Assembly (NCBI GenBank): GCA_951406725.2
Contig: OX597821.1
Span: 24,490,001-24,554,000 of the forward strand
DNA from: Octopus vulgaris
Lineage: Eukaryota
Length of the DNA: 64,000 nucleotides
Reading direction: 5' to 3'
The notes beneath the pieces are model-generated. The model was not told where the DNA came from, searched no databases, and was given only the letters and a program-made list of their open reading frames with translations. This document shows, one piece after another, positions 366-60,493 of this stretch. The number at the start of each line of letters is the position of its first letter. The stretch's first letter is position 1. Position numbers and translations under genes: made by a program.

Positions 366-491
366 TCAGCCAAATGTAGCATTCCCGGTCATATTCCCTG
401 TGAACGCCGTCATATTGGCATTTTTATCACATGGATGTACAGAACTAGTTTGGAACACTATTACTCCATAGGACAAGAGAGTCCCAGATAT
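366..491 (-). CDS. GRL constant exon C3 (terminal): ISGTLLSYGVIVFQTSSVHPCDKNANMTAFTGNMTGNATFG*
   Basis: Polypyrimidine tract and CAG acceptor (cttctctttcttttccag) precede 491; 126 nt open to TGA at 368-366; SYGVIVFQ matches the GR-family TM7b motif TYhhhhhQF; not in the ORF track, translated by hand. Confidence 0.9.
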   Translation of the reverse strand: MSGTLLSYGVIVFQTSSVHPCDKNANMTAFTGNMTGNATFG

Positions 492-979
492 CTGGAAAAG
501 AAAGAGAAGAAATAAGAGAGGCAAAACAAGTTCAGATTAACAGTCCAAAGTCATATCATATTCTATTTAATAGCGAAATAAATATTCTAGGGTCATTGTA
601 CAGTGTTTGTTGACAATTTAACAGTATGTGCAGGTCAGTGTAGATATGATGGTCACTCTAGATTAGAGTTCACATTGTACAGTAACTGGTGATCAACAGA
701 TTATTTGGTAGTCAGTGTTGATTATTTAGTAGCGAGTTTAGGTGCTAATTGGTTAAATCAAACTATTTGGTCGTCGGCTTAGATTATTTGCAAAATAATT
801 TAGTCAGAGTATATGACATTAGAAATACGAGAAAATTAATCAAAATTAATTATCATGCAGGGAATTAAATAACACGCATAGAATTTCTAAACAATTATTT
901 ATTAGGAATTAAATTAACCAATTTTTTTAAAGTATTGATTTATCAACTATTGAACTTTGTAACTATTGATTGCCTAAAC

Positions 980-1218
980 CAGAGCTTCTCAACCATTTAA
1001 CGCTTTTGGTTTCTATTTTACTCAGGTGGACCCGCTCATGTTTAAAAACATCCCTTTATATTTTTATAATTAAATATTGTTAGGACCTGTATGAATAAAT
1101 TGTTGAAATATTTTGTGTTTAGTAGAAGTATAACCAAATTATTGTGCATTCATTTTAACTTCAAAATCTTATATGGACCCCTAAGAGCCTTACGGATCCC
1201 ACGGCTGAGAACCACTGC
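980..1218. mobile_element. hAT-like MITE
   Basis: Ends cagagcttctcaacc ... ggctgagaaccactg form an imperfect CAG-type TIR; a related end lies near 55660-55681. Confidence 0.45.
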
Positions 1219-2022
1219 TCCAAACTACTCATTTCTTCTGTATCGGATTGTCTTAATATTTATTTGTCTAACAACTTTATACGGAAAAAAAAATCATCAT
1301 TATTAATGGTTAAGATTTCTCACTTGCGAATAGTATATTATAGCCTAAAGCAGAGGTCCCCAACTACCGGACCCGGACCAGGATTGCACCGGGGTTAATT
1401 TGAACCCAGGCCGCACACAAAGAATATATCTTAATAGTTTGTTTCTATTTTATAGACCACCGCAGTCTACATGGTGGTTTATTTTGAAAAACTAACACTT
1501 CTGTCCGTGCCACTTACCCGCACCTGCCTGAAACAGTTTGTAAATAAATATATATATATATATGTATATATATATATATATATATATATATATATATATA
1601 TATATATATATATATATATATATATATATATATATATATATATATATATATATATATATATATATTTATATATATAAACTAACCTAAAAGCCGCACTCCG
1701 TGAGGACATTTAAGTTGGCTCCTGCTGGGGGTTAATTGAAGAGAACTAATTATTATCACTATAATACGTCTATTATGACTATATGCCCCGGCAGTGTTTG
1801 ATTAGAAGTTAACGACAGGTGAGAATTAATTCTGTAATACAATCATTCTGTGGTTCCAGTCCCTGTTTAATTTCCAACTGTTGGCCAAATTGTACTAAAG
1901 TTCTCATCTCAACGTAAAATTAATGAAGCGAATGACATTTATCTCCCCCTTGATCTCTGACGTCATCTGACAAGCGCCAACCAAGATGGCATTAATCAGG
2001 CAAGCTTTACTTGCTAGAAATA

Positions 2023-57105: not shown

Positions 57106-57837
57106 TATATATATGTTTCACAGTGACCACCTTCTTTAATCTTTTCATCTTTTCTCTCCTTTTCTTCCCTTTTTCTTTTCCCACTTCTCCCTTTAGTGCG
57201 CATGCGTTTGTATATACAGTCTACTGAAATTTTCATATTATATTCATAATAATACGCATTTTAATAAATGTAACGTTATAATATTATCATACTGGCATTT
57301 TTTTCTTACAGTAAATGGTATGTAAACTGTGCAGTTTGGCTTGATCAGATGGACAACGCTTTTCTTTAACCAAATAGTCAATTTTGTGTTATATCTTGAG
57401 AGAAACAGTTTTAGCCGGGAGTTGAACGGCTTGATCTACAAAGAAGAACTCATCTTTATACAATATATTGCACCTCGACTGGGAGGCCACGAATGAAAAA
57501 TTCCCCGGAAGAAGAAATGGAATCGAATCTACAGCTATACTGTACTAGGACACTAGGATCTCTTCTCATGTTGATTTCAAAAGCAAAATAAGGCGTATTT
57601 CACTTGCCCTAGATATATAATAAAAATGAAAGTATTTCGGCTCTTTTTTCTGAGATTTCACTTGAGATATACCAGAATGTTGTGTTGGAACGACAAAAGA
57701 AAGATATTGAATTTAGTGGTCTCCATGTAAAAGTTCCTACAGAGTTAGTAACTCGGTTCTTTACCTTTTGACCAACAGATTTTAAAAATAATTTTTTGTG
57801 ACTAAACACTTTCAAACTTCGTATACTGGTAGAATGC

Positions 57838-58456
57838 GTCACATAAAACATAGTTTACTCTTGGCGTTGTTGAGAAAATTCTGTATTTTGGAAGTTATTT
57901 CTTTTTAGAGTTGACGTATTTCGGTAATTTCAACCAATCAATGAGGTGTATTCAGCTGAATAAAATTACTGCTGTTGCTTGTCAACAACAACTATCGGTG
58001 GTGTATATTTCGTTTGTCACTGTTACTTATGACATATTTCATCTCAGTTATGTTTGTGTGAATAAATGAGTGTATCTGAAGCATGTTTACTTCATGGCAC
58101 AACCATAAGTGTTCGTGCTTCATCTTTCAGTTTTTTCGTAACTCTAATCCTAAAAAGCCCCAACCCTAACCCTAACCCTAAAACCCTAACCCTAAATCCC
58201 TAACTAACTCTAAAACCCTAACCCTAAAACTTTAAAGCTAAAACCAGAACAAACACACGAACGATGTCATAAATAACAGTGACAAACGAAATATACACCG
58301 CCGATAGTTGTTGACAAACAACGGCAGTAATTTTGTTCAGCAGAATACACATCATTGATTAGTTGAAATTATCGAAATACAACTTTAAAAAGAAATAACT
58401 TCCAAAATACAGAATTTTTTCAACAACGCCAAGAGTAAAAAATGTTTTATGTGATA
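57838..58456. mobile_element. Foldback/MITE-like element with ~195 bp inverted arms around degenerate (CCCTAA)n
   Basis: 57838-58035 is the reverse complement of 58263-58456; ccctaa repeats at 58140-58240. Confidence 0.75.
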
Positions 58457-59371
58457 CATAATAAATTGCGTATTATTATGAATACAGTGTACAAATTCTA
58501 AGTAGATTATTTGAATATTATCAATACTGGTTTCAAATTATGGCACAAGGCCAGTAATAAAATCAACCTCGGCGGAATTTGAACTCGGAACGTACAGTTG
58601 ACCAACATTCCGCTGCCTTGAATAATATTAATATTCATATACATACATACAAATACATACATACATATACACAGACACACACATGTATGTATATATATAT
58701 ATATATGTATGTATATGTATATATATATATATATATATATATGTATGTATATGTATATATATATATATATATATATATGTACATATGTATATATATATAT
58801 ATATATATATATATATATATATGTGTGTGTGTGTGTGTGTATATATGTATATATATATGTATGTATGCATATATATGTATATATATATATATGTGTGTGT
58901 ATGTATGTATATATATATATATGTATGTATGTATATGTATATATATATATGTGTGTGTGTGTATGTATATATATGTATGTATATATATATGTGTGTGTGT
59001 GTGTGTGTGTGTGTGTGTGTGTGTGTGTGTGTGTGTGTGTGTGTGTGTGTGTGTTGTGGCACTACGTCGGTTACGACGATGAGGATTCCTGTTGAACCGA
59101 TCAACGGAATAGTCTGCTCGTGAAATTTACATGTAAGTGGCTGAGCCCTCCACAGACACGTGTACCCTTAACTGGGGTATAGCGCCTCCAAACACACACA
59201 CACACACACACACACACACACACATATATGCATTATACATATCTGCTAAAGTATGTGTGTTCGTGTGTGTATGTATGTAAGTACTGCACACATAATAACA
59301 AATAAATCAATAAATAAATAAACAAACAAATAAATAAATAAATAAACAAATAAATAAAGGAATAAACATAC

Positions 59372-60493
59372 AGCAACTTGTATAGAAATACCGCTGTAGA
59401 GAATAGAGATTGCCATGAAGGCCTGCGTTACTACCATTGCACAGACAACCAGTTTTTCATCAGCGACTACATCCGCTTGAAACAAAATGTAGATCAGCGT
59501 ACAAGTGACAAGAATAGCAAACAAGAACGTCACGACTATACAAATGGAGAAGTAGCCGTTGACTAGTTGTAGTAGTTCCATTATTTCTTCGTATTTCTTC
59601 TGTAGATGAATGAACTTACTGATAACTGTTTGCTCTTGGTCGTCGCTCACTGTTTGTTGTTGCTCGTCGAGCGCTTCCAGCTTTTGTGAGAGGGCATGCA
59701 GCTCACAGCAGATTATTTTCGAAAAGAAATTAAGTAGTAAAGTATCGCTTAATATTCCAAAAGCGACAAACCAGCTTAAAGATATGGTGTTTATCACTTC
59801 AATAGCTTTGTTCTCGCACATTGGTATATGTAATAAAGATCCCACGGTAGAGTCCGTGAATACAGTCGCAGACACTGAGGTTACTAGTGTTATGCTCAAT
59901 ATTATTACGAAAGCTGAAATCTTCACGGATAATTTAGCGTTCCGTTTTAATTTCCTGAAATATTTTTGTTCTGTCATGGGAAAATATGCCGTGAATTTCT
60001 CTAACAATCTTCTGCCATATACGATGTTAAAGATGAACTTTACAATATATTTAAAAACTTCCATACAATAAAACAGCACAAAGTTCAAAATGAGTATAAA
60101 TTTTCCTTGAGTCGCATTTATGTCAAATAAGAAAGATACCCGTAATATATTCATAACCAAAAATAGTAAAACGATACACTTAAAAACTTTACACAAACAT
60201 TGTTGGCGTTTAGTGAGATAACCTGGTGGATAAAATTCTTGACCGGAGAGCGCCGTGAAATGCAGTAGAGGTTTTAAAACGTCCACCAGAATTTCTTCAT
60301 GTGAGAACTCTATTGGTTGCCTGTGGTCCATATCAATAGACTCCCTGCAGTTAGACACAACAGTGCTCGACATGACAGGCTTGGTAAGGTGATTGTTTTC
60401 CAAATATGTATTCCTCGGTTCGTCTTCTGGCATTGTTGCTACACTGGGATTTGTCAGCAGTTTTGCAATTATCTTGTTTCTTTTACCCGGCAT
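59372..60493 (-). CDS. GRL variable exon V6 (374 codons)
   Basis: Intact ORF; GTATGT donor after ..IQVA at 59371; the remaining ORF tail is low-complexity intron read-through. Confidence 0.85.

Follow-up and report, generated by a model that had tools for sequence, protein, structure and literature searches.

A 64,000-nucleotide stretch of the 2.8-Gb Octopus vulgaris genome (hereafter the window; positions 24490001-24554000 of the contig labeled C8) carries a gustatory receptor-like (GRL) locus in which distal long exons are spliced onto one shared series of three short exons. We refer to the long exons as variable (V1 to V6, numbered outward from the short ones) and to the short exons as constant (C1 to C3). 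Taken as a whole, the evidence makes it highly probable that this is one GRL locus whose V exons are joined to a single C1-C2-C3 tail, and we regard the variable/constant architecture itself as close to certain.

Exon layout and copy number of the tail

Six paralogous V exons, all on the minus strand and each a single intact open frame, end at the homologous codon with a phase-0 GT donor (Table 1; lengths are counted from the first ATG). The donor reads GTATGT at 12036, 25712, 32175, 38202, and 59372 and GTACGT at 50955, and the acceptor of C1 at 5301 has a pyrimidine tract and CAG just before it. Together C1, C2, and C3 encode 94 amino acids (aa), all in phase 0, as are the V|C1, C1|C2, and C2|C3 junctions, giving V+C products of 409, 418, 411, 411, 461, and 468 aa for V1 to V6. 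A sequence-only reading of the window had proposed these exons, donors, acceptor, and product lengths, and every one of them checks out on the sequence.

Table 1. Exons of the GRL locus and related copies (window positions unless marked as contig positions)
Feature	Position	Strand	Description	Evidence
V6	59372..60493	-	Variable long exon, 374 aa, predicted helices S1-S6	Open frame; GT donor; joined to C1 in 3 of 4 runs
V5	50955..52055	-	Variable long exon, 367 aa	7tm_7 at 27.6 bits alone; annotated V5-type+C isoform
V4	38202..39152	-	Variable long exon, 317 aa, inside 6.0-kb tandem unit	Annotated V3/V4-type+C isoform
V3	32175..33125	-	Variable long exon, 317 aa, inside 6.4-kb tandem unit	Near-identical to V4
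V2	25712..26683	-	Variable long exon, 324 aa	Contig of run X4 joins a V2-matching end to C1
V1	12036..12980	-	Variable long exon closest to tail, 315 aa	Open frame; GT donor
C1	5301-5230	-	Shared exon, 24 aa; predicted cytoplasmic end of S6 and loop preceding S7a	Spliced in 4 of 4 runs
C2	4718-4632	-	Shared exon, 29 aa; predicted S7a, hairpin, and start of S7b	Spliced in 4 of 4 runs
C3a	491-366	-	Last exon, 41 aa and stop; predicted pore helix S7b, SYGVIVFQT	Joined to C2 in 4 of 4 runs
C3b	contig 24447716-24447877	-	Duplicated last exon	42 kb further downstream, outside the window
Partial V2-V4 unit	43123..44339	-	Fourth copy: upstream region only, without a V exon	

Motif scans of the window returned one match each for C1 and C2, and for C3 the true exon plus one wrong-strand match with two mismatches, which is at chance level (2.0 expected). 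A ten-sequence C2 profile run with filters off gave 50.5 bits for the true exon and 6.7 bits for the runner-up in the window. Across the whole genome, a DNA search gave one match each for C1 and C2, and a protein search agreed. The proposal that the window holds one set of small exons and no further copy is thus borne out by both kinds of scan, and private C1-C3 copies for each V exon, which we looked for, were not found. The tail as a whole is single in C1 and C2 genome-wide, but C3 has a second copy outside the window (C3b, below). When the genome was searched with the V1 protein, which is 51-59% identical to the other five, 6 of 28 candidates were matches, and all 6 lie in the window; the expectation of more V exons past the window end is therefore not supported as far as close paralogues are concerned.

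Splicing of distal V exons onto the tail

We listed 24 sequencing runs, none of which is on record as RNA, and examined four (four studies, two organism labels) that we presume to be RNA. Twenty of the 24 hold part of window positions 4600-5340, many in roughly the proportion that coverage of just the two exons would give. Each of the four examined runs yielded one contig in which C1 is joined to C2 with the intron uncovered. Beyond the C1 acceptor, three of these contigs (runs X6, X10, and X13) continue into the exact end of V6, which implies a 54-kb intron that skips V5 to V1, while the contig from run X4 agrees with V2 in 30 of 30 letters and with V3 and V4 in 29 of 30. Beyond the C2 donor, all four continue into C3a. 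These joins between single-copy exons are best read as spliced transcripts. For V6 and V2, they supply the junction from the V donor to position 5301 that the sequence-only reading had named as its check, and they contradict the outcome it had feared, in which only V1 joins C1. V5 was not seen in the four runs.

Annotated octopus proteins, all of them automatic gene models named "uncharacterized", show the same design. The V6+C product is NCBI CAI9726570.1 (P0004), an uncharacterized O. vulgaris protein. In O. bimaculoides, isoforms X1, X2, and X3 of LOC106874590 have V6-, V2/4-, and V5-type parts followed by an identical 94-aa tail, and among the five isoforms of O. sinensis LOC118764548, X4 combines a V3/V4-type part with C. 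The claim that all six V exons are spliced to C1 accordingly stands for V6 and V2, with annotated models for the V5 and V3/V4 types, but not for V1, of which no spliced form appears among ten protein hits or the four runs. A further O. sinensis isoform, X2 (P0002), has a V6 start and a V5 end that switch at a conserved ICCELH stretch; this chimera is probably a gene-model artifact and possibly a gene conversion.

Protein family, fold, and predicted assembly

Five of the six spliced proteins pass the Pfam 7tm_7 cutoff of 26.6 bits, scoring 43.7-57.7 bits, and V1 alone reaches E 1.2e-4, under the cutoff. A profile of 43 sequences matches 16 structures of Orco, ORs (odorant receptors), and GRs (gustatory receptors) with E between 2e-18 and 8e-6. 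In Foldseek, the model that AlphaFold gives for P0004 (predicted local distance difference test, pLDDT, 80.9) retrieves Orco, ORs, and GRs at E 4e-9 to 4e-4, and VIA-align places it with 20 Orco/OR/GR entries at Z 25.3-32.7 (root-mean-square deviation 3.4-4.1, 314-373 residues aligned), the next unrelated entry scoring 8.3, at an identity of only 8-15% to the solved insect receptors. The spliced product, as modeled, is a seven-helix channel fold of the GR type. This agrees with the earlier assignment to the GR family, and a lack of structural similarity to seven-transmembrane ion channels (7TMICs), on which that assignment had been staked, is contradicted by the Z scores.

In the P0004 model, the V/C junction falls at residue 374, inside the long sixth helix (344-387), and the C part encodes the cytoplasmic end of S6, S7a (393-406), a hairpin with strands, and S7b (422-443), so that the model has the seventh helix split by a hairpin, as in GRs. 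Insect GRs have their ligand pocket within S1-S6 and a pore that is lined by S7b and gated by a phenylalanine, and their anchor consists of S7a plus the cytoplasmic parts of S4-S6 (PMC12635824; papers are cited throughout for the portions of their text that were available). The motif TYhhhhhQF of the seventh transmembrane helix (TM7) is present as the variant SYGVIVFQT, which keeps Y and Q and has S for T and T for F; cuttlefish and scallop relatives likewise end in QT. V2 has an insertion of eight residues in the S4-S5 loop.

Modeled as four copies, residues 230-448 gave a score of 0.65 where the best control gave 0.00; contact agreement was at least 88% and pLDDT at least 73. Among microbial proteins, 21 of 30 paired and none of 23 single-chain ones reached this mark; 7 of 16 animal proteins did, but only 1 of 7 without a solved relative, and the pass may reflect memory of solved Orco/GR tetramers. 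Among the 47 contact residues placed confidently, 37 are C-encoded and 10 V-encoded, and eight of these ten lie at 288-305, among the most conserved stretches of the V alignment. On this prediction, the anchor is only partly constant.

A second last exon

A stretch of some 800 bp that includes C3 occurs a second time as the C3b region (84% over the query). C3b is in frame through the pore helix, with SG replaced by CE before the motif and I by T within it; the replaced G is the consensus residue among the 43 relatives. After the pore helix the frame shifts, giving a different tail. A C3b counterpart occurs in four of the five annotated O. sinensis isoforms and C3a in one, whereas C3b occurs in none of the four runs, a sample that does not show it to be silent. 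Judging from its sequence, C3b may be a decaying copy or may provide an altered pore. Because this duplicated exon exists, the pore segment is not strictly constant. The description of the pore and anchor as identical among isoforms thus needs correcting for the pore helix, of which C3b is a second version, and for the contacts predicted to be V-encoded.

Growth of the array and probable separate promoters

V2 to V4 lie in tandem units of 6.0-6.4 kb that are 94-100% alike in most 300-nt blocks. Over about 900 bp upstream, V2, V4, and V5 can still be aligned with one another, which would be expected were each unit to bring a promoter of its own. Together with the ATG of each V exon, this is indirect evidence for separate promoters, which we hold to be likely. 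Upstream of V2 to V4 (window 26683-26900, 33125-33340, and 39152-39370), the DNA resembles the extension that V5/V6 and O. bimaculoides X2 have at the N-terminus, but the reading frame is interrupted, and the V2-V4 isoforms consequently start about 50 residues later. Upstream of V6, a nonrepetitive open frame of 140 codons (window 62081-62500, minus strand) may be a leader exon, a repeat, or chance.

These observations suggest a mechanism in which the locus would have grown by tandem duplication of the long first coding exon and its upstream region alone. Each transcript would then join one V exon through its phase-0 donor to C1-C2-C3 and skip the intervening V exons, as V6 and V2 do. Each V exon would have its own promoter, and the first donor would be used since downstream V exons lack acceptors. 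V would supply S1-S6, the ligand side in insect GRs, and C the end of S6, S7a, and S7b. The products would be tetrameric ligand-gated cation channels with differing specificities and a probable chemosensory role. Co-assembly of isoforms into mixed tetramers is plausible from the model, because most of the predicted subunit interface is common.

The window also contains transposon remnants at 2626-3228 and 54579-55592, at 28412-29770 with further copies, and at about 62700-63300. By their motifs, we take these to be mariner-like transposase pieces, retroelement-like pieces within the V2-V4 units, and a Helitron-like helicase piece.

A second cluster on the same contig

A genome search with the O. 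sinensis GRL P0024 located a second cluster at C8:106.23-107.28 Mb (the span also being given as ending at 107.29 Mb). One V search gave 58 matches, 56 of them in this interval, and another 82, all in the interval, of which 36 are full-length and free of stops; adding 26 other long open frames from the first search brings the count to about 60 V exons as a lower bound. We found 15 copies of C2 in the cluster, ten with a profile in the scanned parts (106.35-106.77, 106.90-106.92, and 106.97-107.29 Mb) and five by protein search in the remainder (106.23-106.35, 106.77-106.90, and 106.92-106.97 Mb). A three-sequence C2 profile recovered a held-out C2 at E 2e-11 and missed one diverged copy that the ten-sequence profile caught, so very diverged C exons could still escape.

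In the fully scanned intervals, arrays of 8, 4, 2, 15, 32, and 5 V-like exons, lying on both strands, each precede one C1/C2 set. Unfiltered C2 scans inside the 15-, 32-, 2-, and 5-exon arrays gave nothing above 12.1 bits, and the 8- and 4-exon arrays were scanned for C2 with default filters only. The 32-exon array has 19 full-length, stop-free V exons, and the 15-exon array has 12 with frames of at least 360 aa; broken V copies are frequent in the cluster. We inspected 53 V ends, from proteins with 15-62% identity to a single reference V: 51 retain GT at the homologous codon, and of the other two, one carries GC and one lacks a donor. The GC donor (GCAAGT, L013:6299-6305) belongs to an intact V exon and lies at the homologous position.

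At 106.82-106.96 Mb, duplication has copied entire units, each with one or two V exons and a private tail; private C copies, where present, are thus picked up by the searches. We considered these units as one-V-one-C genes with a fused C2/C3 and rejected this, as most have two V-like exons and the C2 donor is normal. We also dismissed as chance the weak profile matches in or beside the arrays (12.1 bits on the wrong strand; 14.1 bits, partial). Two inverted (minus-strand) V fragments lie within the 8-exon array (C8:106416032 and 106424767), and a plus-strand V exon at C8:106755638-106756504 has no same-strand C2 found before 107.28 Mb in an interval that was partly scanned.

For the family membership of the cluster's V exons, the evidence is indirect. 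P0024 passes 7tm_7, and in its annotated model the distal V of a two-exon array is joined to the tail and the nearer V skipped. A language-model search placed one cluster V exon with OR/7tm_7 clusters (0.94), and a V-only model (pLDDT 84.0) retrieved OR/GR structures in the first 14 rows listed. A whole-genome scan with Pfam PF08395 gave 26 matches at E up to 1 (best 0.0017), including one known V exon and none in the cluster. With a scallop GRL as query, none of 11 candidates in the genome was a match, and for one V exon from the 15-exon array a protein collection gave no match among 1,070 candidates of 199-634 aa. The cluster is apparently mostly unannotated. At the DNA level, the same process appears to have built at least six further arrays in this 1-Mb cluster.

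Weighing the explanations

Several observations weigh against the reading that all six V exons, and those of the second cluster, encode GR-type receptors completed by a shared tail. V1 is the sole exon type without a spliced form (none of ten protein hits, none of the four runs), no splice evidence separates V3 from V4, and the near-identical V2-V4 units may be recent copy-number or assembly copies. For separate promoters, the contigs extend 71-135 letters into V and include no 5' end. The tissues of the four runs are not given. At the protein level, the spliced protein P0014 falls under the 7tm_7 cutoff at 24.6 bits, and the TM7 motif ends in QT rather than QF, F being the gate residue in insect GRs. 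In the second cluster, none of eight V exons passes 7tm_7 alone, the V-only structural matches are weak (E 0.01-0.4), and P0024 is the sole transcript-level hint. Finally, the cnidarian GRL NvecGrl1 has a role in developmental patterning, not sensing (PMC5850775).

The missing V1 form is also what would be seen if only V6, V5, and one of V2-V4 were used, V1 and the near-identical copies being silent, very recent, or assembly duplicates, and the locus made three or four receptors. That O. bimaculoides has three annotated isoforms among the hits fits such a repertoire, as do the few residues at which V3 and V4 differ and the partial unit at 43.1-44.3 kb, which points to recent unequal duplication. 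We nevertheless think it unlikely: V1 retains an intact 315-codon frame, a donor, and 51-59% identity to its neighbors, an unnamed V1-like fragment (P0006, 75% identical) occurs in another data set, and four runs are a very small sample. Far harder to credit is that each V exon is a stand-alone gene with a single exon, or an orphan pseudo-exon, for a six-helix protein, with only the nearest using the tail. Each V frame does run a few codons into the intron before a stop, so that a truncated product could be made, and several V copies in the second cluster are broken; yet V6, the most distal exon, is the one most often joined to C1, the account is contradicted for V6 and V2, and donors are kept at nearly all inspected V ends despite the divergence of their proteins.

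The arrangement upstream of the V exons admits another view, in which these are mutually exclusive internal exons served by one upstream promoter and a common noncoding leader exon. The contigs without a 5' end leave room for it, as do a pyrimidine-rich stretch followed by AG sites upstream of V1 and the unexplained open frame upstream of V6. We consider it improbable given that each V exon has its own ATG, that annotated isoforms differ from the first residue, that the upstream 900 bp were copied with each unit and still align between V5 and V2/V4, and that insect arrays of such layout are alternative first exons (PMC6175461). As for function, "chemosensory" and "different ligand pockets" are extrapolated from the family, and real channels might instead serve internal sensing, temperature sensing, or development. 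NvecGrl1 speaks for this, as do the thermosensory Gr28b(D) (PMC11526382) and the detection of the tail in runs of at least four studies with no tissue stated. Some 60 diverged V exons with frequent broken copies fit the gain and loss of chemoreceptors known from insect GRs and ORs, and we hold a role other than taste or smell to be possible but doubtful. Our preferred reading remains alternative V exons on a shared tail, with external chemosensation as the probable use.

Relation to known systems

Within the same superfamily, Gr39a, Gr28b, and German cockroach Gr60a-m likewise splice several long first exons to small shared exons. Drosophila Gr39a joins four large exons to three small shared ones (PMC2204066), and cockroach GR genes have up to 13 alternative first exons on shared exons (PMC6175461). 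The octopus locus has the features of a Gr39a-type locus, namely, tandem long exons, one short 3' set, and more than one long exon spliced to that set. It also shares the three 3' phase-0 introns, the comparison being of number and phase. Three such introns are a general GR feature (PMC9998090, PMC7746228), so duplicating the long first exon alone can yield arrays in any lineage. From pairwise identities, the octopus and insect arrays would have arisen separately, because octopus V exons are far closer to one another (51-59% or more) than to insect receptors (8-15%). The octopus arrays differ from those of insects in phylum, in size (up to 32 V-like exons, 19 of them intact, against 13 in the largest named in the cockroach paper), and in the possible second choice added by C3b. 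With animal GRL/7TMIC proteins generally (PF08395), the octopus proteins share a 7tm_7 pass, the Orco/GR fold, the TM7 motif, and the 3' introns, differing in QT for QF.

The same variable/constant logic is found in proteins unrelated to octopus GRLs. UGT1A has many variable first exons and shared final exons. Vertebrate clustered protocadherins do as well, whereas cephalopod protocadherins do not use variable/constant splicing (PMC9068888). Chemotactile receptors, a clustered and expanded octopus family with 26 members in O. bimaculoides (PMC11526382, PMC9068888), are pentameric acetylcholine-receptor derivatives with shown ligands, whereas the octopus GRLs are candidate receptors with a seven-helix GR fold.

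The closest named matches outside octopuses are cuttlefish, bivalve, and gastropod proteins. Cuttlefish CAE1281263.1 and CAE1281266.1 (P0015 and P0055), both from a single contig, differ in their V parts while their C-terminus is identical, and unnamed V-only proteins of both cuttlefish types are 35% identical to each other, one being 27% identical to V6. These protein sequences suggest that the variable/constant design also exists in cuttlefish, a decapodiform.

The sequence-only reading knew of no such architecture in molluscs, and we likewise found no published description of variable/constant GRL splicing in molluscs in literature that included few subscription papers. In the available portions, the words "gustatory" and "GRL" are absent from a cephalopod genome paper on large gene clusters (PMC9068888), octopus is not mentioned in PMC5850775, and PMC6408891 and PMC13174522 contain nothing on GRLs.

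Conclusions

In a wider picture, which we consider less likely than not, octopus would have about 70 GR-type channels, apart from the chemotactile receptors. These would be arranged in seven or more variable/constant arrays, with as many as about 20 working V exons per tail. A V promoter would be chosen in each neuron, tetramers would be mixed, and C3a/C3b would act as a pore switch. Annotation would miss such channels because the ligand-binding exons lie far from the pore exons and fall below Pfam detection alone, and the number of GRLs in large mollusc genomes may have been put far too low.

The locus would be a natural swap experiment, in which different S1-S6 modules are placed on one pore. 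It would also mean that molluscs evolved the design of insect Gr39a anew, and did so in a lineage whose protocadherins are reported not to use it. The receptor-level account of octopus chemosensation has so far consisted mainly of about 26 chemotactile receptors; some 70 candidate GR-type channels with defined splice junctions would make other cephalopod taste and smell receptors directly testable.

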